The position numbers and the translations under genes are program-made. Positions 1,728 through 19,936 of a stretch of 20,000 bases of DNA are shown here, piece after piece; positions within the stretch are counted from its first letter, which is position 1, and each line of letters opens with the position of its first letter. The stretch lies in IMG/VR virus record IMGVR_UViG_3300025018_000139; one strand, written 5' to 3'. This stretch comes from an uncultured virus (IMG/VR IMGVR_UViG_3300025018_000139) (Duplodnaviria > Heunggongvirae > Uroviricota > Caudoviricetes). The notes under the pieces are model-generated. The model saw only the letters and a list, made by a program, of their open reading frames with translations. It was not told the origin of the DNA and made no database searches.

Positions 1728-1880
1728 GTGGGAAACGTCGACAAAGAGAAACTATATAAAAAACTAAAGATGTTGCGAGACTTACGTCAAATACAAAAAA
1801 AACAAGAAGAAGAAAAAGATGAGCATGATTACCTTCTCAGTCTCATAAGAAGTGGCTCATTCAACTTTGAAAGACCATAA
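1728..1880 (+). CDS. Small hypothetical protein (50 aa, charged, helical)
   Basis: Read manually and not in the ORF track: GTG start, VGNVDKEKLYKKLKMLRDLRQIQKKQEEEKDEHDYLLSLIRSGSFNFERP*. Fills the gap between the 1699 stop and the convergent GNAT gene. Confidence 0.45.
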   Translation: MGNVDKEKLYKKLKMLRDLRQIQKKQEEEKDEHDYLLSLIRSGSFNFERP

Positions 1881-2285
1881 GATAAAACCTTCTTCTTTGA
1901 ATTTTTTTGGAGCATCAATCCATTCTTTAAATCCACAATCTTTTAGATTTTTGATTGAATAGTGATTATTGACGCTCGTATATGTTACAATTTGCTTAAG
2001 TCCGAGAGTCCTTCCTGCCTCTATTCTTTTTTCTATTAGCATTTTTTGAATGCCTTGGCCTCTTTTGTTAGGAGCAACTCCAACACGTGCTAAAAAATAA
2101 GAATCGCCCATCTTGCAGGCTGATGCATAGCCAATAACCTCTTTGTTTTCGTCATAAGCAAACCACCAAGAATACTTTGGTAAACCAAGAAGCGGCAAGA
2201 GATCTTCAGGAAAACAAATTTTATCTAAATTTCTAAGAATGCAGTGATTCTTAAATGTCTTTCTAACTTTTTTAATCTCGACCAT
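1857..2285 (-). CDS. GNAT-family N-acetyltransferase
   Basis: Acetyl-CoA motif A LARVGVAPNKRGQGIQKMLI and motif B NNHYSIKNLKDCGF. Confidence 0.9.
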   Translation of the reverse strand: MVEIKKVRKTFKNHCILRNLDKICFPEDLLPLLGLPKYSWWFAYDENKEVIGYASACKMGDSYFLARVGVAPNKRGQGIQKMLIEKRIEAGRTLGLKQIVTYTSVNNHYSIKNLKDCGFKEWIDAPKKFKEEGFILWSFKVE

Positions 2286-2556: not shown

Positions 2557-2580
2557 AAAGAAAACGTGATATTTATAGCC

Positions 2581-3030
2581 ATGGCAACATTTGATACAAA
2601 CGTTGATAATAAAAGCAGAGCAGCAGGAATCATGCCAATTTCTGCCAACTCTGGGCGGTTCCTTCTTGCATTGAGGCACGAAGGGGTTTATTCTACAATT
2701 GGAGGATATCTTCGTTGGGGCGAAAAGTGCGCAGAAGGCGCAATAAGGGAGTTTGTTGAAGAAACCATGTATGATGGCCCTCTTTTGCTTTTAAAGGGAT
2801 ATACTCACCAAAGTCCCGTCAAAAATTTTTCATATGTTAATTTTTTGGGAATATGCCCCCAAGAATTTGAGCCTGTTCTCGATCAAGAAAATATTGAAGC
2901 CGAATGGTTTAGTTTGTCCCAGCTCTATGCCGGAGAATTGCCTCTTCATAAGGATTTTGAGTCCTTTTTGGTAGAAGCGAGGCCTCTTATCGACTCCACC
3001 ATCAAAAGTTTGGGCCTCCTAAACCCTTGA
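2581..3030 (+). CDS. Nudix hydrolase
   Basis: Nudix box GGYLRWGEKCAEGAIREFVEET, plus AAGIM...FLLALR and ENIEAEWF. The ATG at 2581 is preferred over GTG 2566 because of the ATATTTA-N5-ATG motif. Confidence 0.85.
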   Translation: MATFDTNVDNKSRAAGIMPISANSGRFLLALRHEGVYSTIGGYLRWGEKCAEGAIREFVEETMYDGPLLLLKGYTHQSPVKNFSYVNFLGICPQEFEPVLDQENIEAEWFSLSQLYAGELPLHKDFESFLVEARPLIDSTIKSLGLLNP

Positions 3031-4019: not shown

Positions 4020-4781
4020 ATGCGAAGCGATATGGCAAAAAAGCTGTGTGAACGTCCTCGAACGAATGATGGTTGGGGTCGAATGGACACTTATGTCCGA
4101 AACAATAAAATTCGAGTTCAGGAGCTAGAAGAAGACGAAGATGGTGACGGAAATATCATTCTTGACGTTGATGACAGTGGCCGCTCACGACATCCCATGA
4201 GCATCGGACGAGGCTCAAAGGAGCTTGGAGAAAATTTGGCTCCTCTTTATCGCTTTTTGGACAAACAGGTCGGCCGCCCTTGGGACAAGGTTTATAGCGA
4301 AATTCGAGAACAGGTTAGCGCAAATAGTGCAACTCAAATTCATATTCTTCAGCATGCCGAAACTCATGTTAGCGGATTTCAAGAAACCTTGATTATAAAA
4401 GAAGATGGAAAGATTTATAGTGGAAATTATGGATATGAGCTTTCAAACGATGAGCTTTATATTCATCCTGAAACCAAAATTCTTTGCAAGTACAAAACTG
4501 ATAAAAAAAAGTACCTATACAAATTTTGGCAAAATGTACATAATGTCAAAGAAAAAGACATTTTAAAAATTGAAGATTGTATCTATTTCGCCAAAATGAA
4601 TGGAACCTGGTATGAAATCACTTACGAGCAAAAATGGTCTCATGAAAATTATAAGTTTTCATTTAAGTCCTATTTTTTGAATTTTTGTGGACATCCTTTG
4701 GATTTCAAATACGGATACAAATTGCCATACGAAAAAAGAGCTATTCCAAAAAGCATTTTAAAGAGAATGGGACTAAAATGA
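4020..4781 (+). CDS. Conserved-type hypothetical protein (253 aa)
   Basis: Motifs MRxDMxKxxxERPR and ENLAPLxRFLxKQVGRPWDKVYSEI resemble a bacterial/phage hypothetical family I recall. ATGA-coupled to the downstream CCA gene. Confidence 0.8.
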   Translation: MRSDMAKKLCERPRTNDGWGRMDTYVRNNKIRVQELEEDEDGDGNIILDVDDSGRSRHPMSIGRGSKELGENLAPLYRFLDKQVGRPWDKVYSEIREQVSANSATQIHILQHAETHVSGFQETLIIKEDGKIYSGNYGYELSNDELYIHPETKILCKYKTDKKKYLYKFWQNVHNVKEKDILKIEDCIYFAKMNGTWYEITYEQKWSHENYKFSFKSYFLNFCGHPLDFKYGYKLPYEKRAIPKSILKRMGLK

Positions 4782-6085
4782 CAAAAAATAAAATCATTAA
4801 AGCAATTGAAGATCGTGGCGGAGAAGTTTTTATTGTCGGAGGAGCCGTACGTGATGATTTGCTTGGTCTTGAAAGTAAAGATATTGACTTCTTGGTCAGG
4901 CTCCTTACTTTCGATGAAATAAAAGAATCGATTTCTCACCTTGGAAAGGTTTTGGACCAAGAAGTTGGAGGCAAAGTCTCGATGCTCAAGATTACGATTG
5001 ATGGTGAAGAATTTGATATCGCAATTCCTAGGACAAGCGAAGTAAGTACGGGCTCTGGGCATGGTGATTTTAGCATTGTCATGGATCCTCATGCATCGGT
5101 GGAATCCGATTTATCTCGACGTGATTTTACAATCAATGCGCTTGCCAGGGATGCTAAAGGAAATATTATTGATTCCTTTGGTGGACTAAAAGATATTGAA
5201 GATAAGCTTATTCGAGCAGTTGGAGAGCCCGAAGCTCGATTTATAGAAGATCCTTTGCGAATGCTGCGAGCTTTGCAGTTTGCCGTTCGGTTTGGATTTG
5301 AAATAGAAGAAAAAACTGCAAAAGCTATAAAAAATCTGAAAGGGCTCATTAAAACGATTTCAAGTGAAAGAATTTTCATGGAATTTGAAAAGGCTTGGAC
5401 AAAGGGAAAAAATCAAGAAGCATTTGTAAGAATGCTTCTTGATTTTCAAATTGGAACCGAGTTGTTTGGTTCCAAATTCGAACCTATTGCAATTGAAATC
5501 GAAGGAACAAACCAAGAAAAAGTCCTTTCGGGATTTATTAGTCTTTTTCTTTTTCATAAGCCCGGATTTGTTCTTGAGCCAGGCATTATACAAACTACAA
5601 ATAGAATGGCAAATCACTTAAGAATTGCTTGGGATTTTCTGCATTTAAAATCAGAAATTTGGAAATGGGCAGATCGTTCTCATTTAGCATTCTTTAATAA
5701 ATTCTTTACAGCTTTGAAAAATAGAGAGTGTGACTGCGAAAATGGAGTCATATGGCTTTCCGAATCAGAAATCGTTGATGAATTAACGTCGGCACGAGGA
5801 AATGGGGAATCAATTTCATTTAGCTTTGGATTCGGAGGAAAAGAAAGAACTTGGCGTGATTGTAAAAAATGCAAACCAGACTTTGAAGAAATTGTTAATT
5901 TCATCGAATTTTGCAAATCATGTCCAATGTCAGCAAAAGAACTTGATATTTCTGGGAATGAATTGATGGATTTTGGATTTGAAGGAAAAGAAATTGGAAT
6001 AATCCAAAACAAAATATTGAATGCAATATTTGAAGAAGAAATTTCCAACAAGAAAGAAGAAATATTAAAATGGATTCAAAACTAA
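4778..6085 (+). CDS. cca: Class II tRNA nucleotidyltransferase (CCA-adding enzyme), no HD domain
   Basis: Motif A VGGAVRDDLLG...KDIDF, motif B DLSRRDFTINA, motif C GGLKDI, motif D FIEDPLRMLRA, motif E SSERIFMEFEK, and C-terminal LDISGNELM...GKEIG. Start is the ATG at 4778 overlapping the upstream TGA. Confidence 0.9.
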   Translation: MTKNKIIKAIEDRGGEVFIVGGAVRDDLLGLESKDIDFLVRLLTFDEIKESISHLGKVLDQEVGGKVSMLKITIDGEEFDIAIPRTSEVSTGSGHGDFSIVMDPHASVESDLSRRDFTINALARDAKGNIIDSFGGLKDIEDKLIRAVGEPEARFIEDPLRMLRALQFAVRFGFEIEEKTAKAIKNLKGLIKTISSERIFMEFEKAWTKGKNQEAFVRMLLDFQIGTELFGSKFEPIAIEIEGTNQEKVLSGFISLFLFHKPGFVLEPGIIQTTNRMANHLRIAWDFLHLKSEIWKWADRSHLAFFNKFFTALKNRECDCENGVIWLSESEIVDELTSARGNGESISFSFGFGGKERTWRDCKKCKPDFEEIVNFIEFCKSCPMSAKELDISGNELMDFGFEGKEIGIIQNKILNAIFEEEISNKKEEILKWIQN

Positions 6086-6606
6086 AAGAGAAATATGATG
6101 TTGTTTATCGCAGGATTGGAGGAGTTGGCGTCGCTGTAATTCGACGAAATGAAGAAGATATTCTTTCCTGGCTTCCTCAGCAAAACTTCTCAGGAGAAGA
6201 TGGAAGCCCTATCTCAAGAAAACAATGTCCAGATGCCTGGAAGGTCGCTGATGTTCTTTCTTCGACTCATTTGCTAGTTTATCTTGCTCGAAAAGAAGCA
6301 AGAACTCTTGCAAAAATGTTTGCACGTGATTGCCAAAAGATTCCTAGGGGTTTTACTTCGCTAAAAATAGACGAGCATAATTTATTGCTTTTTTGGGTTT
6401 ATCAATGCATGAAAGAAGAGCATCTTCGAGGAGTTAAAGCAGGAATTAATTTTAAGCATGAAGACTCTCATGTTTCTCATGTCTTTGAGATGTTAAGATG
6501 GGAAGATGATGGAACCGAGGATGAAATATGGGGTGGCTACAAAAAAGGAAAAGAAATCATTAAAAAACTTTGTATTAAGGCAGGAATGAAGGAATTTACA
6601 AAATGA
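6070..6606 (+). CDS. Hypothetical protein (178 aa)
   Basis: Long ORF overlapping the cca stop; no motif recognised. Confidence 0.75.
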   Translation: MDSKLKEKYDVVYRRIGGVGVAVIRRNEEDILSWLPQQNFSGEDGSPISRKQCPDAWKVADVLSSTHLLVYLARKEARTLAKMFARDCQKIPRGFTSLKIDEHNLLLFWVYQCMKEEHLRGVKAGINFKHEDSHVSHVFEMLRWEDDGTEDEIWGGYKKGKEIIKKLCIKAGMKEFTK

Positions 6607-6728
6607 ATATTTTAGCTTGTGGATGTGGTGGAATTCTTGAAATTGCAATTGGTGGATTCGGAATGTTTATGGCATCAGTTGTTGGAGTAATGTTTTGGAT
6701 TCGACAAAAAATAGAGAGATATTTATGA
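6603..6728 (+). CDS. Small single-pass membrane protein (41 aa)
   Basis: Read manually: MNILACGCGGILEIAIGGFGMFMASVVGVMFWIRQKIERYL*. Hydrophobic helix followed by a basic tail; ATGA overlap with the upstream gene. Confidence 0.6.
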   Translation: MNILACGCGGILEIAIGGFGMFMASVVGVMFWIRQKIERYL

Positions 6729-9918: not shown

Positions 9919-10770
9919 ATGTCTCGTTCAAGTTTTACCGATTTTATTAAAAAATATTTGCCACAACCTAAAGTTCCTGAAACAAAAGGAATTCTTCAAG
10001 GCTTCGTTAAGGAGTCTATTGAAAAATTCAAAGATGACGGATTGGACGATGATGATATTGATTCTTTAGAAAAGGTTGCGTCTAAAGAAGGAACAATTAA
10101 TATTGTTCCTAAAGAATATTTATTCATCGACCTGACAAAAGAACCCAGAACAAAAGATCGTGGTAAATCTCAGGGTAAAAGAGATTGGAAAAATGTAAAA
10201 GGCATAACCCTTCATCAAACAGCAGTTGACTTTGGCACAAATCCAATGAGGCTTCTTAATGTGCCTGTTCATGGTGCTACGCTAAAAGATGGAAAGATTG
10301 TTTTGTTGCATACTCCAACGGCATACATGTGGCATGCTCACTCACTAAATAAATATGACGTGGGAATTGAGGTAAGTTGTCGAACTGCTGGGGTTCATGG
10401 TGTCGAAAGAACCTTCTGGAGAAGCAAGAGGGAGATCGACGCAAAAAAAACATATGAAGATCTTGTTGCTGACCCTACAGAAATTCAACTTGAAGCAACA
10501 AAAGAACTATGTCGCTACTATATAAGGCTTGTTGAAGAAAATGGTGGCAAAATTGAATTTATTCATGCCCATCGCCAAGGACACAAAAGCCGTGTTGGAG
10601 ATCCTGGTTCCCTAATCTGGCAGAAGGTTGCAATTCCAATTATGGAAGAATTTGGACTTAGTTGTGGGCCAATTGGATGGAAGGTTGGATCAGGTAATCC
10701 AATTCCTGAAATTTGGGATAAAATTCGAGGAAAAGGAATTTCTTATAGCAGTTCTTTTAAAGGGTTTTAA
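9919..10770 (+). CDS. N-acetylmuramoyl-L-alanine amidase (Amidase_2 family), putative endolysin
   Basis: ITLHQTA (Zn His), WHAHSLNKYDVGIEV, QLEATKEL, HAHRQ...GDPG (Zn His/Asp). Confidence 0.85.
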   Translation: MSRSSFTDFIKKYLPQPKVPETKGILQGFVKESIEKFKDDGLDDDDIDSLEKVASKEGTINIVPKEYLFIDLTKEPRTKDRGKSQGKRDWKNVKGITLHQTAVDFGTNPMRLLNVPVHGATLKDGKIVLLHTPTAYMWHAHSLNKYDVGIEVSCRTAGVHGVERTFWRSKREIDAKKTYEDLVADPTEIQLEATKELCRYYIRLVEENGGKIEFIHAHRQGHKSRVGDPGSLIWQKVAIPIMEEFGLSCGPIGWKVGSGNPIPEIWDKIRGKGISYSSSFKGF

Positions 10771-11632: not shown

Positions 11633-12478
11633 CTAATGAACACTACTTGTTGCCTGTCTTTTTCCGCCAGGAAATCTACCACCGCCGGCCGGGCCACTTC
11701 CTTTACCAACCCCAGCTCTTTGAGTCTTTGGATGGGCATTAGCCTTAACTTTGCTTAGGCTATTATTTGCATCAAATGGATTCATTGGGTTTTTATTGAA
11801 TTCAGGTTCTTCTTCGTTGTCCCAGGGAAATTCGTCACCTGTATCAATAACCTTTTCCAAATACTGATCCCAAGTTTCACTCATCGGACTTATAAAAGAA
11901 GATTCAACAACAAGCGCCTTTAAATCGTCCATCAAATGAGACATATTGTAAATTTTTGCTTTTTGAATAAGATTTGGATTTTTTCTTCCTCCCATTATAT
12001 TAGCAATGGCCAAATCTTCATCTTTAAAATTTGTCGCTGATTCTTCTGGTGTTTTGTCTTTTTCTTGATCTATTTTTTCTTCTAATGCAGCAAGAATTAT
12101 TTCAACTTGAAGCTTTGTCAATCCATGTTTTTTTGGATCCCAAAAACCATGCTTAGAACCGTATTTGTAAATGTTGACTCCTCGCTCTTCGAAATCTTCA
12201 ATCATTTCTTGAGGAATTCCTCTGGTAACGTAGATCATTTCATTTAAAAATGCTTTTGTATATTCTTTAATTGACTCTTCAATTGTTTTCAATTTTTGAT
12301 AATACAAAGGATCTTCAGTTAAGTGATCCATTGCAATCTCCCTTGCTACTATTGGATCACTTGTATGTTCAAGTTCAACATCTATTCCAATTTTTAATTG
12401 TTTTGGATCGAAGTCGGATGGAGTAAAGGCATCGGCCAATCCTCCTGGCATAAGATCTTTGAATTCATTATTTGCCAT
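11633..12478 (-). CDS. DUF5661-like domain protein, candidate virion-associated
   Basis: N-terminal PGGLAD...FDPKQLKIGIDVELEHTSDPIVAREIAMDHLTEDPLYYQKLKTIE matches the GxxVExEH...IAxDHLxExxxYY pattern I recall for DUF5661. Gly-rich basic tail. Confidence 0.8.
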   Translation of the reverse strand: MANNEFKDLMPGGLADAFTPSDFDPKQLKIGIDVELEHTSDPIVAREIAMDHLTEDPLYYQKLKTIEESIKEYTKAFLNEMIYVTRGIPQEMIEDFEERGVNIYKYGSKHGFWDPKKHGLTKLQVEIILAALEEKIDQEKDKTPEESATNFKDEDLAIANIMGGRKNPNLIQKAKIYNMSHLMDDLKALVVESSFISPMSETWDQYLEKVIDTGDEFPWDNEEEPEFNKNPMNPFDANNSLSKVKANAHPKTQRAGVGKGSGPAGGGRFPGGKRQATSSVH

Positions 12479-14303: not shown

Positions 14304-14831
14304 TCAATCAACTCTTTTATACATAACATCAGTTCTTAGTGCGTATTTTATCCCAGAAAGGACAGGCATGCCTTCGTGCATCAAATGATGCATAAAAAGA
14401 ATAGCTGAACCTGTTTTTGGAGAAAATGTTTCCATTCCAAAAAATTCAGTTTCTCCACCTTCATAATCTTCATTTAAGTATATTAAAATGGTTTGGAAAC
14501 TTCTTTCTTTTTCGTTTCTTATAAAAGAAGCATCTGAATGCAAAGCAAAATTTTGTCCTGGATTGTAACGATAAATTTTAAATCTTTCATTTAGGCCAAT
14601 CGGCCTCCATTTAAGATCATTATGTATCAATTTTGATTTTATTTTATCAAAAAGTTTTTGAGCCAAAACATGATCGTCAAAAATATAGCGATCATTGTTT
14701 CTATAGTTTGTATCAATTTTATCACCGCTTGGTGTGGTAATAGAAGCAATGCTCATACCAGAGTTTTCTGCCAAATCAATAAAATCCTTACATTCTTCCG
14801 GTGTCAGTAAATTTTCTATAATTGTTCTCAT
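14304..14831 (-). CDS. 2OG-Fe(II) oxygenase, prolyl-4-hydroxylase-like
   Basis: LTPEEC start, RYNPGQNFALHSD (HxD), TILIYLNEDYEGGETEF, HEG (distal His), KYALRTD. Confidence 0.92.
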   Translation of the reverse strand: MRTIIENLLTPEECKDFIDLAENSGMSIASITTPSGDKIDTNYRNNDRYIFDDHVLAQKLFDKIKSKLIHNDLKWRPIGLNERFKIYRYNPGQNFALHSDASFIRNEKERSFQTILIYLNEDYEGGETEFFGMETFSPKTGSAILFMHHLMHEGMPVLSGIKYALRTDVMYKRVD

Positions 14832-15363: not shown

Positions 15364-16536
15364 TCACATAGATTGGATTTTACTAATGCCGACTTGATAA
15401 ATTTTCTGCAATCCGCTAGGCATTTTTGACATTTTTTCTTTTAAGTTCTCAATTGCCATATCTTTAATCCCCTTTTTTGTACTTCCAACAACAAGTTGAG
15501 CTGTTTTTTTTGCGTCACCTTGCCCTTTTTGCTGGATTAGTTCAGAAAATTTTCCCTTTGTTGCCTTATCCAATGCGCTTGTACTTTTAAGGGATTGGAT
15601 ATGTTCCTTTGTAAGGTCGACAACTTCTCTTACATAATCCTTTGCAAGTTCTTCGGCGTCTTTGCGCATGCTTTGTGCCAATTGACTCTGTTCAATTGCT
15701 TTTTCAATCTCTGGAGATTTCTTAAATGCATCAACAATTTTTCCAAGAAAATCCTTGATTCCTTCTTGAATAATTTCTTCTTCTCTAGAAATTGACTCAT
15801 AATGAGTTTTTCCATAAAATCTTTTACTATAATCTTGTCCTTTTGGATCTTTTTTAGGGTTCCACCAACGATGTTGTTTTATCTTTGGCTGAGTTATTGG
15901 CTTTTTTGCACCAACGTCAACTGGCAAAGGCTTTGGAGAAGTTGGTCCACCTCTCATTCGTCCAACGTGTCCAATTCTGCCTGTTACTTCTCTTGCTTTG
16001 TCCGTTAAATTTTTTACTTTTTGATTGCCGCCAGCAAACATATCGATAAGGCTCAAAGCTGTATCTGGAGCAGCTTTCAAAACCCTTCCTGTGACGTAAG
16101 AATGCGGAGCGTACAGAAACGCCATTAGAGCTGCATCGCCTGTAAATAAGTGAGCTTCTGTTCTGGCGAACACTTCTTTATATTTGTCTTTGATAGAGTT
16201 CATTCTTTGATCGAATTCTTTTTCAAATTCATCATAGTCTGCCTTGTATCCTGGAATGTACAGGGCCATAACGTCTTCCGACAACTTACCAGCAAGTTTC
16301 TGAATTTCTGAAGAAAACCTTTCAACAAATGCGGCAGTATGCCTCAAAGGATCAACGAATGCATTGAAGATATCGGTAAAGAATTCATCAGAAACCCCAT
16401 GACCGCCACCACCGCCACCACCGCCATAGCCGCCATAGCCGCCATAGCCGCCATAATCTCCACCATCTCCATATTCATTCAAAAAAACTTCATTTAAGAA
16501 TTCTTTTAGAATCTTATCTTGTTTTGGTTCTAACAT
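15364..16536 (-). CDS. Hypothetical protein (390 aa) with Gly/Tyr-rich N-terminal segment, candidate virion-associated
   Basis: ILKEFLNEVFLNE leader, (GGY)n-Gly run, helical body; ATATTTA-N5-ATG upstream. Confidence 0.85.
   Translation of the reverse strand: MLEPKQDKILKEFLNEVFLNEYGDGGDYGGYGGYGGYGGGGGGGGHGVSDEFFTDIFNAFVDPLRHTAAFVERFSSEIQKLAGKLSEDVMALYIPGYKADYDEFEKEFDQRMNSIKDKYKEVFARTEAHLFTGDAALMAFLYAPHSYVTGRVLKAAPDTALSLIDMFAGGNQKVKNLTDKAREVTGRIGHVGRMRGGPTSPKPLPVDVGAKKPITQPKIKQHRWWNPKKDPKGQDYSKRFYGKTHYESISREEEIIQEGIKDFLGKIVDAFKKSPEIEKAIEQSQLAQSMRKDAEELAKDYVREVVDLTKEHIQSLKSTSALDKATKGKFSELIQQKGQGDAKKTAQLVVGSTKKGIKDMAIENLKEKMSKMPSGLQKIYQVGISKIQSM
16403..16456. repeat. 9-bp period coding tandem repeat (CCGCCACCA x2, CCGCCATAG x3, CCGCCATAA)
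   Basis: Seen directly; encodes YGGYGGYGGYGGGGGGGG on the minus strand. Confidence 0.9.
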
Positions 16537-16553
16537 AATAATAAATATAAGCC

Positions 16554-16985
16554 CTATTTCATATTTCTCATTATAATATTCTTGGCATATGTAGCCAAAG
16601 GCTTTTGATAATGATATATTTCTGGCAAATCCTCAATAGGGAACCAGCAAGCTTCGGAAATTTCTCCACTACGTCCAGAAATGCCATTTTGTGGATTTAA
16701 TTGTTTTGCCAAGAATATGTGAACAACTTTATTTTCATTCTTATTTGAAGAAAAGACAGGGGGAAGCTCATATAAAAGGCGACTGACAACCCCAGTTTCT
16801 TCCCACGTCTCTCTTACTGCACATTCTTCAATGGATTCATTTTTTTCCAAATGCCCTTTTGGAAAACCATATCTGTTATTTTTGTCTTTTTCATGCTTAA
16901 TTAGAAGAAAGTCAATTCCCCCACATTCATTCATTCGAAAGACAACACAGCCAGCACAAACACTATTTCTTTTACGCTGTTCCAT
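16554..16985 (-). CDS. Nudix hydrolase, Ap4A-hydrolase-like
   Basis: CAGCVVFR, FLLIKH, FPKGHLEKNESIEECAVRETWEETG (canonical Nudix box), EISEACWF. Start is either ATG 16985 or ATG 17009. Confidence 0.9.
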   Translation of the reverse strand: MEQRKRNSVCAGCVVFRMNECGGIDFLLIKHEKDKNNRYGFPKGHLEKNESIEECAVRETWEETGVVSRLLYELPPVFSSNKNENKVVHIFLAKQLNPQNGISGRSGEISEACWFPIEDLPEIYHYQKPLATYAKNIIMRNMK

Positions 16986-17022
16986 TTCTACACAATATAA
17001 GTATAGCATAGGAACCTCTAAT

Positions 17023-17562
17023 ATGAAGATATCACTTTACCCGATTTCTGCGAAACCCTATCACTTAGGACATCACATGATGATTCAAAAAGCATCCAAA
17101 GAATGCGATAAAGTTATTGTTATTGTTTCTCTTTTGGACAGAGAAAATGTGACAGGAAGTGATATGGCAATAATTTGGAAAAATCACATATTAAAAATAT
17201 TGCCAGAAAATGTAAGTACAATATTTTTGCAAAGCTCACCAGTTTCCAAAGTTTTTGAAATACTAAAATTAAGAGAACAAAGTCCCTCATCTGATTATAA
17301 GTTTTGCATTTATTCAGATGAAAGCGACATTACAAAAAACTATAGCAATTCAGTGCTTGAAAAGATTTGTCCTAGATTGCTCATGGAGGGTGGACTTGAA
17401 AGAAGGGGTGTTTCAAGAAATGAAACAATTCAAATAAGTGGTTCAGATGTAAGAAAGCATATTTTGAATGGAGATTTTATATCTTTTGAAAAAAGTATGC
17501 CAAAAGAGTTGAATAGTAAAGCTGTTTTTGAAATATTAGCTACTTTGCATGAACATCGCTAA
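17023..17562 (+). CDS. Cytidylyltransferase-like (HxGH superfamily) nucleotidyltransferase
   Basis: MKISLYPISAKPYHLGHH (HxGH), DKVIVIVS, C-terminal ISGSDVRK (ISSTxIR-like). Likely start is ATG 17023; the ORF-track extension overlaps the divergent Nudix gene. Confidence 0.85.
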   Translation: MKISLYPISAKPYHLGHHMMIQKASKECDKVIVIVSLLDRENVTGSDMAIIWKNHILKILPENVSTIFLQSSPVSKVFEILKLREQSPSSDYKFCIYSDESDITKNYSNSVLEKICPRLLMEGGLERRGVSRNETIQISGSDVRKHILNGDFISFEKSMPKELNSKAVFEILATLHEHR

Positions 17563-18777
17563 TGGAATATCGTTTGGATTAGAAGTTCTTTTTTGTTCTC
17601 CATATCTAACCGCAGCAATAATCCTGTTCATAGGGGCATAAGATCCTGTAACCTTATACACTCTTTCGTTAAACTTAAAAACAAGACCCTCTATTGTCAC
17701 CATCCCTGTTCCAATTTTAGGATGCAAATTGTGCAATAGATCAATATGATTTTTATTGCTACCATTTCTAATAATGTCACAGCATCGATTGTATTCTCTT
17801 TTAATTCTCAAGGCTTCTTCTGTAGCCTCGTCAATATATTCTGACTTCATGTTTGACAATAAGAGAGACGAGAACCTATGAACAATGTTTTCAATTGGAT
17901 TTAAAATTTTTGGTAGAACATTGTTTTTTTCTTCATCGATCATGTTTTTTACTAGCGTTCTCATGGTCGAGTCGACTGACGCTAACAGAAACTTGTTTGT
18001 TGGCGCTCCTTGCATTTTTACAAGCGATTTTGAGACACCATTCCGTACGTGCTCAGGAATAAGAGGAAATCGCTGCATATCTTCTTTTAGACGGCTTGCA
18101 GCGAACGATCTAATTGTTGTTGCGTCATCTATTTTATTTTTTCGTTGAATTTCAGTAACTTCAAAACAAGCTTTATCTATTATTGAGTCATCAATTGAAT
18201 TAAGTGGAAAACACCTTGGCTCAATCAATTTCCACAAATCTATTTCTTTATTCATAGAAGGAATAGAAAGTTTTAAAATTTCTAAATTCCTAGGCAATGC
18301 ATTAGATATTGGCTCTCCATCCATTCCAAATAATACTGGCCCATACTCATGAAATACAATTCTTTTATTGCTATAGTGAATTGTATTTGGGAAATCTGGA
18401 TCTATTATTTCAACAGGATACCAAACGGTTCCCATACTTCCAAAGATTTGTGATTTGATATTATATTGTAAAGAACTTACAGCCCTATGAATTACATCAT
18501 AAGCATTGACAAAAAGAGACTCTATTTCTGGTCTATCTCCAAATTTCAAAGATAGGCCATATCTGTCAAGTCCACCATCTTTTATGTTTTGTTTATTTCT
18601 TGCAACTTTTAAAGTTTCTTTATCAAAGTCCCATCCTATAAAGAGATTTTGACCGTCAAGCTTTTCATAAACATCAACATCAGCATATCCAAGCATTTTA
18701 AAGATTGACTTGAGATCTCTAAATCTCAAGTCAAAATCTTCATAAATGTGATTTATATGACCGCCAAGAGCTGTCAA
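17536..18777 (-). CDS. Ligase-fold covalent nucleotidyltransferase-like protein (RNA-ligase-like; possibly DUF6267-related)
   Basis: Motif I YEKLDGQN, Ia VARNK, III-like PVEII, IIIa IVFHE, IV IEGLVFK, V VYKVTG. N-terminal GGHINHIYED. TTG start coupled to the upstream TGA. Confidence 0.7.
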   Translation of the reverse strand: MTALGGHINHIYEDFDLRFRDLKSIFKMLGYADVDVYEKLDGQNLFIGWDFDKETLKVARNKQNIKDGGLDRYGLSLKFGDRPEIESLFVNAYDVIHRAVSSLQYNIKSQIFGSMGTVWYPVEIIDPDFPNTIHYSNKRIVFHEYGPVLFGMDGEPISNALPRNLEILKLSIPSMNKEIDLWKLIEPRCFPLNSIDDSIIDKACFEVTEIQRKNKIDDATTIRSFAASRLKEDMQRFPLIPEHVRNGVSKSLVKMQGAPTNKFLLASVDSTMRTLVKNMIDEEKNNVLPKILNPIENIVHRFSSLLLSNMKSEYIDEATEEALRIKREYNRCCDIIRNGSNKNHIDLLHNLHPKIGTGMVTIEGLVFKFNERVYKVTGSYAPMNRIIAAVRYGEQKRTSNPNDIPLAMFMQSS

Positions 18778-18959
18778 TTTTCAACAACCCCATAGCCTTT
18801 ATTTATAGCTTTTTGAAATGAAATTTTGAAAAATTCTGCAATTTCATGATTAGAGACGGCTTCTTCTTTAGCTTTTCCAAATGCCTCTCTCACCTTATCT
18901 AGAATTGCATCATTATATTCAATTTCTATTCCTTCTCCAAGAACAATTTTATTTTCCAT
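18774..18959 (-). CDS. Small hypothetical protein (61 aa)
   Basis: Tiles between neighbours (3-nt gap upstream, 4-nt overlap downstream). Confidence 0.75.
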   Translation of the reverse strand: MENKIVLGEGIEIEYNDAILDKVREAFGKAKEEAVSNHEIAEFFKISFQKAINKGYGVVEN

Positions 18960-18962
18960 ATC

Positions 18963-19739
18963 CTATCCTATCAAAAGAGATAGGATATGTTGTCTATATT
19001 CTTCAGCTAAACGAGAATTTCTTGGACCAACTTGGATTGGAGGATTTGTATCCTCTGTTCCTCTTGATGTTCTTCCAGGAGAGCCATGGGATGGCTGTAA
19101 GGCTGGCTGGGATGGCTGCCTTGTCATTACTTCTCCCTGATCAACTCTTTCTTGATCTGTCGCATCAATATTTACATTTTCATCACCTGGATCTGGTGCT
19201 TCTTTTGCCGGAGTTCCCGAGGCAATGTCTTGCAATGCGCTTAAGAATGTGGCCAAAGCCAATCTTTCACTGTCATTAAGTTGATTTTCAAAATACTTTT
19301 TAAGTTCTGCTGATATGTCAGGATCTTTAAAAGAACGACCAGCTCTTATCATGTTTAATGTAGAGATTAATCCATCTGATGTAATCTCTCCCAGCTCTAA
19401 GGTTAGTGGAACTGGACGAACATTTACTTTCTCTTTGGCCGGCTCTGCCTTTGGCGCTTCAGGAGCAGCGGGAGCTTCAGGAGCAGCATCTTCGGTACCC
19501 TGATCACCTTCGTCGCCTTTGTCTCCACCAAAAATATCGTCACCACCATCATCGCCTTCACCATCTTCGTCTCCTTTGTCGTCACCACCAAACAAAGGAT
19601 CCTCATCTTCATCTTCTCCCTGTTCAAACAACGAACGAGAAGAAGACGAAGCTGAACTATAAGCATTTTTTACACTTTCTTCAGCAAGAACCCTAAGAAA
19701 CATGCTCAAATCACTTGAATTCATAATTTTAGCTGGCAT
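18963..19739 (-). CDS. Acidic, Pro/Ala-rich hypothetical protein, candidate virion/scaffold-associated
   Basis: GGAGG SD and TAATG coupling favour ATG 19739. Contains a D/G/E low-complexity tract, a PEAPAA repeat and a central folded core LNMIRAGRSFKD...LNDSERLAL. Confidence 0.8.
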   Translation of the reverse strand: MPAKIMNSSDLSMFLRVLAEESVKNAYSSASSSSRSLFEQGEDEDEDPLFGGDDKGDEDGEGDDGGDDIFGGDKGDEGDQGTEDAAPEAPAAPEAPKAEPAKEKVNVRPVPLTLELGEITSDGLISTLNMIRAGRSFKDPDISAELKKYFENQLNDSERLALATFLSALQDIASGTPAKEAPDPGDENVNIDATDQERVDQGEVMTRQPSQPALQPSHGSPGRTSRGTEDTNPPIQVGPRNSRLAEEYRQHILSLLIG

Positions 19740-19936
19740 TATTTCCTCCACCTGGTGCTGTTTCCTGGTCTTTCTGAATATTCTTCAATAAGTTTTCGGG
19801 CATTTTCACCCTTTCCATCACTTTGCTTGATGGACTTATTGGTTGTCTCTTTTATTAAGATTTCATCCATAAACTTGTCAAATTCAAGTTCTTTTTTAAA
19901 ATCTTCTGGTCCTTCGATAAGAAATTCTCCGCTCAT
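19739..19936 (-). CDS. Hypothetical protein (65 aa)
   Basis: GGAGG 8 nt before ATG 19936; ATAGTTA motif at 19960-19966 upstream. Confidence 0.75.
   Translation of the reverse strand: MSGEFLIEGPEDFKKELEFDKFMDEILIKETTNKSIKQSDGKGENARKLIEEYSERPGNSTRWRK

Follow-up and report, generated by a model that had tools for sequence, protein, structure and literature searches.

A split pair of ligase-like and HIGH-type nucleotidyltransferase genes in an uncultured tailed phage: a candidate enzyme for the processing of nucleic-acid ends

What might a tailed phage do with three nucleotide-handling enzymes encoded side by side? The question is raised by one locus in a stretch of 20,000 nucleotides from an uncultured member of the Caudoviricetes (IMG/VR record IMGVR_UViG_3300025018_000139), which we call the window and which overall resembles a large tailed phage. 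A ligase-like gene (17536..18777, minus strand), delimited from the open reading frame (ORF) list and from reading of the sequence, encodes a 413-aa protein from a TTG start. Converging on it is a plus-strand gene (17023..17562) for a 179-aa protein of the HIGH-motif nucleotidyltransferase type (HxGH...ISxxxR; NMNAT/PPAT-like), referred to here as the HxGH protein, and divergent from the HxGH gene is a minus-strand gene (16554..17009) for a 151-aa Nudix hydrolase. A preliminary description, made from the sequence alone, had proposed that the three form one nucleotide-transfer system. The three ORFs, their coordinates and the 27-bp overlap of the convergent genes (17536-17562) are as it gave them; its 37-bp gap between the Nudix and HxGH genes stands if the second Nudix ATG (16985) is used, whereas the first ATG (17009) leaves 13 bp. 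Our verdict is that the ligase-like and HxGH genes make up a pair, in which an enzyme of the ligase superfamily is joined by an obligatory partner that has no precedent, and that the Nudix gene is at best a lineage-specific accessory.

The 413-aa protein gave zero matches in Pfam, PHROGs, NCBIfam and PDB sequences. An AlphaFold model, computed with an alignment of 21 homologues as input, reached a predicted local distance difference test score (pLDDT) of 90.3 and a predicted template-modelling score of 0.85. When this model was compared by VIA-align with 48,161 PDB representatives, the first 11 rows were all ligases (Z 9.1-7.1, 169-206 residues aligned). Ten of these are RNA or tRNA ligases, one of the ten being 3qwu, an entry titled putative DNA ligase, and the eleventh (6rce) is a DNA ligase. 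The best row was TbREL1 (1xdn; Z 9.1, root-mean-square deviation 4.5, 198 aligned), and the same comparison gave Z-scores of 8.8 for NgrRnl (5cot), 8.7 for T4 Rnl2 (2hvq), 8.2 for Trl1 (6n0t), 7.8 for archaeal Rnl3 and 7.6 for T4 Rnl1 (9do4). Further DNA ligases and capping enzymes scored lower, at Z 5.3-6.9. The Foldseek top 10 in the PDB consisted of archaeal-type RNA ligases and 3qwu (E 0.02-0.055), and a BFVD structure search ranked members of the family ahead of some 20 viral proteins that bear the name RNA ligase; a 591-aa protein of S-PM2 was also a structural match in that search. The VIA-align alignments cover residues 3 to ~400 of the model and skip ~160-360. The nucleotidyltransferase core is accordingly built from residues ~1-160 and ~360-395 and is interrupted by a helical insert of ~200 aa (~160-360) that resembles only helical bundles. 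In the model, the protein ends ~35 residues past motif V in one helix and a disordered tail.

The motifs agree with this fold. The window protein carries EKLDG (residues 38-42), EGLVFK (363-368) and YKVTG (374-378), and we followed their conservation in 96 diverse relatives with ~27% mean identity to it. H10, E38, K39, D41, G42, R60, G69, F112, N131, E363, F367, Y374 and K375 are invariant in this set, and E123, H143 and G364 are nearly so. E123, H143, E363, G364 and K375 fall on predicted strands, motifs III-V having been assigned from order and secondary structure, and the conserved residues follow one another in what we take to be the order expected of ligase motifs I, Ia, III, IIIa, IV and V. 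The Pfam family matched by most members was RNA_ligase (PF09414), with 13 of the 96 at E<=1 and a best value of 4.5e-5. In an hhalign comparison of the family profile with a reference profile of T4 Rnl2 and six canonical RNA ligases from related huge phages (E 1.4e-4, probability 52%), K39 was paired with Rnl2 K35 and R60 with Rnl2 R55. Lys39 is thus the putative catalytic residue, as read from the sequence. The KxDG/EG/K motifs from which the preliminary description had argued are thus conserved, and the model has the ligase nucleotidyltransferase fold that it had set as a test for this protein. A further label for the family suggested by the Atlas, DUF6267 (PF19782), was set aside: the window protein did not match it, and it is absent from the 25 Pfam families most matched by the 96 members. 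In five phage records with a member of the family its profile likewise matched nothing at E<=1, a result of little weight because the control genomes gave no match either.

Compared with the ATP-dependent RNA ligases (T4 Rnl2/TbREL1, NgrRnl, that is Rnl5, Trl1 and T4 Rnl1), the family has the same predicted nucleotidyltransferase fold (Z 9.1-7.6, 177-206 aligned) and shares the motif I EKxDG, the motif Ia Arg and, by the above assignment, the motif IV EG and the motif V Lys; an oligonucleotide-binding (OB) domain is absent in both. The 413-aa protein differs from these ligases by the ~200-aa helical insert, which lies between motifs IIIa and IV, by the replacement of the second Lys of motif V with Thr, and by scores under the cut-offs of the curated profiles, and it is known here by its sequence and model. 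DNA ligases and mRNA capping enzymes differ from it in another respect, since it has neither an OB-fold domain nor a motif VI after the nucleotidyltransferase domain. On its predicted fold and motifs, we conclude that the 413-aa protein is a divergent covalent lysine-nucleotidyltransferase of the RNA-ligase type, and we consider it likely to be an active one.

The HxGH protein carries HLGH at residues 14-17 and ISGSDVR at ~138-144, and in 34 HxGH-domain sequences P12 and H17 are invariant and R144 is nearly invariant. Its sequence matches were weak and confined to the HxGH region. Citrate_ly_lig scored 28.6 bits over 39 residues against a cut-off of 20.9, CTP_transf_like (PF01467) stayed below its cut-off (15.8 bits against 21), and so did TIGR00125 (27.0 against 27.7). 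The model of the protein (pLDDT 91.9) had 117 Foldseek matches in the PDB at E<=1e-3, which include NMNAT, PPAT, NadD, NadR, ATP sulfurylase and NadM-Nudix. The NMNAT/PPAT-like predicted fold, together with both motifs, bears out the assignment of this protein to the HIGH-type nucleotidyltransferases. It shares with NMNAT and PPAT (PF01467/TIGR00125) the Rossmann-like fold and the HxGH and ISxxxR motifs (Foldseek 5e-7 to 1e-4, TM-score 0.53-0.62), but it lies far under every equivalog cut-off and, unlike them, is fused to or paired with a ligase-like domain. A tblastn search of cultured phages with the 179-aa protein found nothing.

The link between the two genes is provided by the wider family. 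A family-profile search of 1.84 billion representatives gave 2104 clusters (50% identity) at E<=1e-3, of which 1080 reached E<=1e-30; relatives of the ligase-like gene are encoded on at least 549 IMG/VR contigs, and the best 145 clusters have a median length of 792 aa. Alignments showed that the 179-aa protein is homologous to a domain that relatives carry in fusion with the ligase-like domain. Among the 259 distinct ligase-like domains that we were able to place, both domains were found in one polypeptide in 175, the ligase-like domain coming first in 149 and the HxGH domain first in 26; another 30 have a different partner and 54 stand alone. The HxGH-then-ligase order also occurs in a cultured Microcystis phage, Mel-JY01, as one coding sequence of 640 aa that is annotated only as 'cytidylyltransferase like protein'. 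To our knowledge, fusion to a HIGH nucleotidyltransferase is present in no characterised ligase. Pairs of this kind had been said in the preliminary description to recur in large phages, with co-occurrence or fusion in related genomes as the test, and for the ligase-like/HxGH pair they do.

Where the ligase-like gene stands alone, the HxGH gene is usually close by. An HxGH gene was found within 5 kb of a stand-alone ligase-like gene in 8 of 10 loci, on the opposite strand in six of these (the window and loci L086, L087, L090, L069 and L096) and on the same strand directly upstream of the ligase-like gene in the other two (L097 and L098); in L090, ~0.9 kb separates the two genes. A metagenome scan returned only an identical contig (L082). 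The stand-alone clade to which the window belongs has 32 members, which lie on one side of the midpoint root of a tree built without an outgroup. We considered whether the HxGH gene had arisen by inversion of a fused ancestor; no inverted repeats flank the gene, and the midpoint-rooted tree gives no direction. Fusion in both orders, together with repeated proximity of the unfused genes, is strong evidence for a shared function, and the 413-aa and 179-aa genes very probably represent two halves of one phage enzyme that act as a single functional unit. The two separate proteins may also associate physically; a complex prediction for them, run without controls, scored 0.21 and 0.27 against a mark of 0.32.

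What, then, would such an enzyme do? With moderate confidence, we favor a split enzyme pair that processes or joins broken nucleic-acid ends, probably of RNA, during infection. For the more specific statement that the substrate of the ligase-like protein is a polynucleotide end, we regard the case as evenly balanced. Lys39 would attack the alpha-phosphate of a nucleoside triphosphate (NTP) to form a lysine-linked nucleoside monophosphate (NMP), the NMP would be moved from Lys39 to a 5'-phosphate end, and this end would then be sealed or left NMP-capped. The HIGH half would use an NTP to transfer an NMP onto an acceptor that bears a phosphate, with release of pyrophosphate, and it may serve the same pathway by supplying a dinucleotide cofactor or by activating the phosphate end. 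The Nudix enzyme, if it takes part, could convert pyrophosphate-linked 5' ends to the 5'-monophosphate ends that a ligase needs. We also offer, as a long shot, a two-step relay in which the HIGH enzyme builds or activates a pyrophosphate-linked donor or 5' end that Lys39 takes up and transfers to RNA, so that the phage would produce either joined RNA or a non-canonical 5' cap, with the Dcp2/Ap4A-hydrolase-like Nudix enzyme as the eraser; we know of no system that uses such a nucleotide relay.

Rare additional fusions in the family point to nucleic-acid ends rather than to a signal, small-molecule modification or NAD salvage. One relative, P0173 (1385 aa), has a C-terminal 2H phosphoesterase domain (PF13563, 2.4e-15; RNA 2',3'-cyclic phosphodiesterase 5h7e in the PDB, 5e-4). 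In two groups the HxGH domain is replaced by a C-terminal module of ~450 aa, which at the level of motifs alone resembles PD-(D/E)XK enzymes in the P0088-P0169 group (GPGE...SYD...EVK...RPGTEG) and Pol-beta nucleotidyltransferases in the P0027/P0086/P0105 group (GSTGKK...GDIDL); PDB sequence searches with both modules found nothing. By Pfam, P0156 contains a GIY-YIG domain, which is maybe a homing element. The family can also be compared with the healing-and-sealing systems of the Trl1 and Pnkp/Rnl types, with which some of its members have in common a ligase fold joined to an end-healing domain (2H, in P0173). It differs from them in that its usual partner is a HIGH transferase and not a kinase or phosphatase, kinase-like P-loops (Walker A motifs outside the two domains) occurring in only 2 of 271 proteins.

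Several observations weigh against the processing or joining of ends, the scarcity of P-loops being one of them. Repair-type fusions are rare, a Pfam scan of 105 family proteins having turned up a single 2H domain, and the neighbors of the fused genes are terminase, PhoH/PIN, protease and tail-fibre chaperone genes rather than repair genes. We know of no role for a HIGH nucleotidyltransferase in RNA or DNA repair, and the logic of the fusion is therefore left unexplained. Other points concern the ligase assignment itself. No family member passes the cut-off of any curated ligase profile (27 bits for PF09414), and the window protein matches no ligase profile in Pfam. The profile-profile probability was only 52%, over 57 columns, an hhalign comparison of the family profile with T4 Rnl2 by itself found nothing, and hidden Markov model searches of PDB sequences, with the single protein or the family profile, returned only designed helical repeats that match the insert. 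The model contains neither an OB fold nor any other known C-terminal ligase domain, the second Lys of the canonical motif V (KxK) is Thr here (YKVTG), and a Z-score of ~9 is, by VIA-align's own note, near the typical best score for models that lack a clear Foldseek match. Finally, two related huge phages (G001 and G002) each encode three canonical PF09414 RNA ligases besides the ligase-like gene, so that the ligase-like protein is not their only ligase; the PF09414 profile did not recover the ligase-like gene itself in either genome.

The third gene of the locus encodes a clear Nudix hydrolase. Its product matched Pfam NUDIX (PF00293) with 80.5 bits (cut-off 21.1, E 1.5e-22) and has an intact Nudix box at residues 52-74 (G52-x5-E-x7-RE-x2-EE-x-G73). 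PDB sequence matches were 1vc8 (2.6e-11), 3i7u (3.2e-10) and Dcp2 (3e-7), the closest solved relatives being Ndx1, Ap4A hydrolase and Dcp2, and there were weak matches to RNA pyrophosphohydrolase models in NCBIfam. A second Nudix hydrolase is encoded elsewhere in the window (2566-3030, plus strand; 2e-12), and each of the two related huge phages has three Nudix genes.

A clade-specific scan found the layout of the window, with a ligase-like gene, an opposite-strand HxGH gene and a divergent Nudix gene, in three more loci, the close relatives L086 (47% identity) and L087 (54%, on a 322-kb contig) and the distant L090 (~27%, on a 340-kb contig). In L090 the HxGH and Nudix genes are still adjacent despite the displaced ligase-like gene. 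In all three, however, synteny extends over the whole region, with the 83-, 262- and 61-aa genes on its upstream side and the 390- and 119-aa genes on its downstream side, so that the Nudix gene may owe its position to inheritance and not to selection. In L069 and L096, no Nudix gene adjoins the HxGH gene. Among 80 fused-form loci, a Nudix-box pattern, itself imperfect since it missed the window's own second Nudix gene, was detected within 5 kb in only four, and no Nudix domain was found in the 105 family proteins scanned with Pfam. The preliminary description had counted the Nudix enzyme as a third member of the system; this fits L086, L087 and L090, where it adjoins the HxGH gene, but not L069, L096 and 76 of the 80 fused loci. 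That the enzyme takes part in the ligase-like/HxGH system is a tentative proposal that we are inclined to doubt.

A different explanation is a module for NAD+ or a related dinucleotide cofactor. Here the HxGH protein would be an NMN adenylyltransferase, the Nudix enzyme an ADP-ribose or NAD pyrophosphatase and the ligase-like protein a user or sensor of NAD+, and the module would sustain NAD+ against host defences that deplete it. Archaeal NMNATs head the Foldseek matches of the HxGH model (4yp6, 5.4e-7), and the list includes 2r5w and 2qjo, two bifunctional NMNAT/ADP-ribose pyrophosphatases; in one fused relative the HxGH domain has matches (4e-10) among Flavobacterium phage proteins whose annotation is NMN adenylyltransferase, and the divergent HxGH-Nudix pair is retained in four loci. 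PPAT and NadD are, however, equally good by TM-score, and the weak NCBIfam matches of the HxGH protein to the NMNAT equivalogs are far from passing (TIGR01527, 22.8 bits against 181.2; NF002243, 24.7 against 127). A HIGH transferase and a Nudix enzyme are associated here as in NadM-Nudix (2qjo, 2r5w), but as divergent genes and not as a fusion, and the window's Nudix enzyme has its nearest relatives in Ndx1, Ap4A hydrolase and Dcp2 rather than among the ADP-ribose pyrophosphatases. G002, the 340-kb relative, encodes its own canonical system, a 444-aa NMNAT-Nudix ORF beside Nampt (C1:45746-48369), ~160 kb from the module, and no Nampt was found in G001. Since the Nampt/NMNAT-Nudix pair of G002 is separate and G001 is without Nampt, NAD salvage is unlikely as the core role. 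The Nudix enzyme is, moreover, not a partner in most of the family, and an NAD+ module leaves the invariant ligase motifs and the 2H phosphoesterase fusion unexplained. We consider this explanation unlikely.

An alternative that is compatible with the processing of nucleic-acid ends is that the enzyme is carried in the virion or linked to head or tail assembly, catalysis being secondary. A parallel is T4 RNA ligase 1, which also serves in the attachment of tail fibres. Within one clade of the family, the fused gene directly follows a tail-fibre assembly chaperone gene (16 loci) and lies ~2.8 kb before the large terminase gene (21 loci), in Mel-JY01 it is located 2.6 kb before the terminase gene, and one family member (P0069) has an M23 peptidase domain at its N-terminus. 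Cyanophage S-SZBM1 encodes a 'cytidylyltransferase' homologous to the HxGH family, gp140 (L085 4390-5478, minus strand; hhalign 96%, 1.2e-9), and gp141, whose gene is located just upstream (5478-6671, minus strand), contains VKWDG weakly aligned to motif I (E 0.03); gp139 and gp142 gave no match to the ligase-like profile. In the S-SZBM1 study, gp140 was among the proteins detected in purified virions, but this detection amounts to two peptides from a distant relative (PMC9146016). Pfam and PHROGs recognised no structural gene adjoining the pair in the window, and the catalytic motifs are so strictly conserved that catalysis is expected to matter. We regard a role of this kind as improbable.

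The last alternative, a non-canonical 5' RNA cap (A-cap, NAD-like or NpnN-like) whose NMP-linked group is added by the HIGH enzyme, the ligase-like enzyme or both and removed by the Nudix enzyme, would suit the chemistry of all three enzyme classes, as inferred from family knowledge, and the resemblance of the Nudix enzyme to Dcp2, Ap4A hydrolases and, weakly, RNA pyrophosphohydrolases, and capping enzymes have the same fold (Z 5.3-5.8), but it is improbable as well, given that RNA ligases fit the model better (Z 9.1-7.3 against 5.8-5.3), that the 413-aa protein has no OB domain and that, over the family as a whole, the Nudix gene does not accompany the pair.

Processing or joining of nucleic-acid ends therefore remains the reading that we favor for the pair, and the genes around it add further detail on the split form. 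The ligase-like gene closes a tight minus-strand run in which a 262-aa ORF (18963..19751) is followed by a 61-aa ORF (18774..18959), whose stop overlaps the ligase-like start by 4 bp. The N-terminal half of the 262-aa protein is acidic (Asp/Glu/Gly-rich) and of low complexity and its C-terminal half is conserved; it had no Pfam or PHROG match, and neither it nor the 61-aa protein belongs to a known family. Homologues of it are encoded upstream of the ligase-like gene in all seven split-form loci (the window, L086, L087, L089, L090, L069 and L096), and 61-aa homologues are located directly upstream of the stand-alone ligase-like gene in five of the seven. The HxGH gene, which has an AGGA 9 nt upstream of its ATG, is the sole plus-strand gene from ~11.6 kb to the end of the window at 20 kb; promoter and terminator scans of the locus found nothing exceeding shuffled expectation. 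Downstream of the Nudix gene is a minus-strand ORF for a 390-aa Gly/Tyr-rich and Lys-rich protein (15364..16536), with a (GGY)n/poly-Gly run that derives from a 9-nt tandem repeat (16402-16473), and homologues occupy the same position in L086, L087 and L090. When the 61-, 262- and 83-aa families were compared by hhalign with conserved neighbors of the fused genes, nothing exceeded 50% probability; the 390-aa family reached 70% with one fused-gene neighbor cluster over 30 columns, which we treated as noise. Jackhmmer searches with the 390-, 262-, 61-, 119- and 602-aa proteins gave no match to the extra regions of the fused proteins.

A minus-strand gene at 11633-12478 encodes a 281-aa protein with DUF5661 (6.4e-14). 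This domain is also present in 38% of one fused cluster in the Atlas, and in P0142 (2009 aa) it is fused to the ligase-like domain. The 281-aa protein may be another detached piece of the ligase-like/HxGH system. Elsewhere in the window, a plus-strand gene at 4685-6085 encodes a CCA-adding tRNA nucleotidyltransferase, another RNA-end enzyme (PolyA_pol head domain, 1.3e-22; NCBIfam CCA tRNA nucleotidyltransferase, 6e-53, below cut-off). The plus-strand ORF at 2-1699 encodes a DUF2201/VWA-like, metallopeptidase-like protein into which an intein that contains a LAGLIDADG homing endonuclease appears to be inserted (Pfam LAGLIDADG_3, Hom_end and Intein_splicing). The window also encodes a GNAT acetyltransferase (1857-2285, minus strand), a probable endolysin with an Amidase_2 domain (9919-10770, plus strand), a 2OG-Fe(II) oxygenase (14304-14831, minus strand; 1.6e-11) and an AAA ATPase.

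We found no description of the family in the literature covered, subscription journals being outside that coverage. New here are the split convergent form, the conserved 262-aa and 61-aa upstream partners and the lineage-specific Nudix gene. Among uncultured tailed phages this is a very large family, yet its only name so far is 'cytidyltransferase-like', which describes one of its two domains. The split form provides two small, separately expressible proteins for biochemistry, and Mel-JY01 is a cultured phage suited to genetics. If it is real, a new ligase-superfamily branch permanently coupled to an NMNAT/PPAT-like transferase would represent either a new kind of enzyme for nucleic-acid repair or end modification or a new enzyme tool, and, common as it is, it would bear on the ways in which phages withstand host nucleases or defences that deplete nucleotides.

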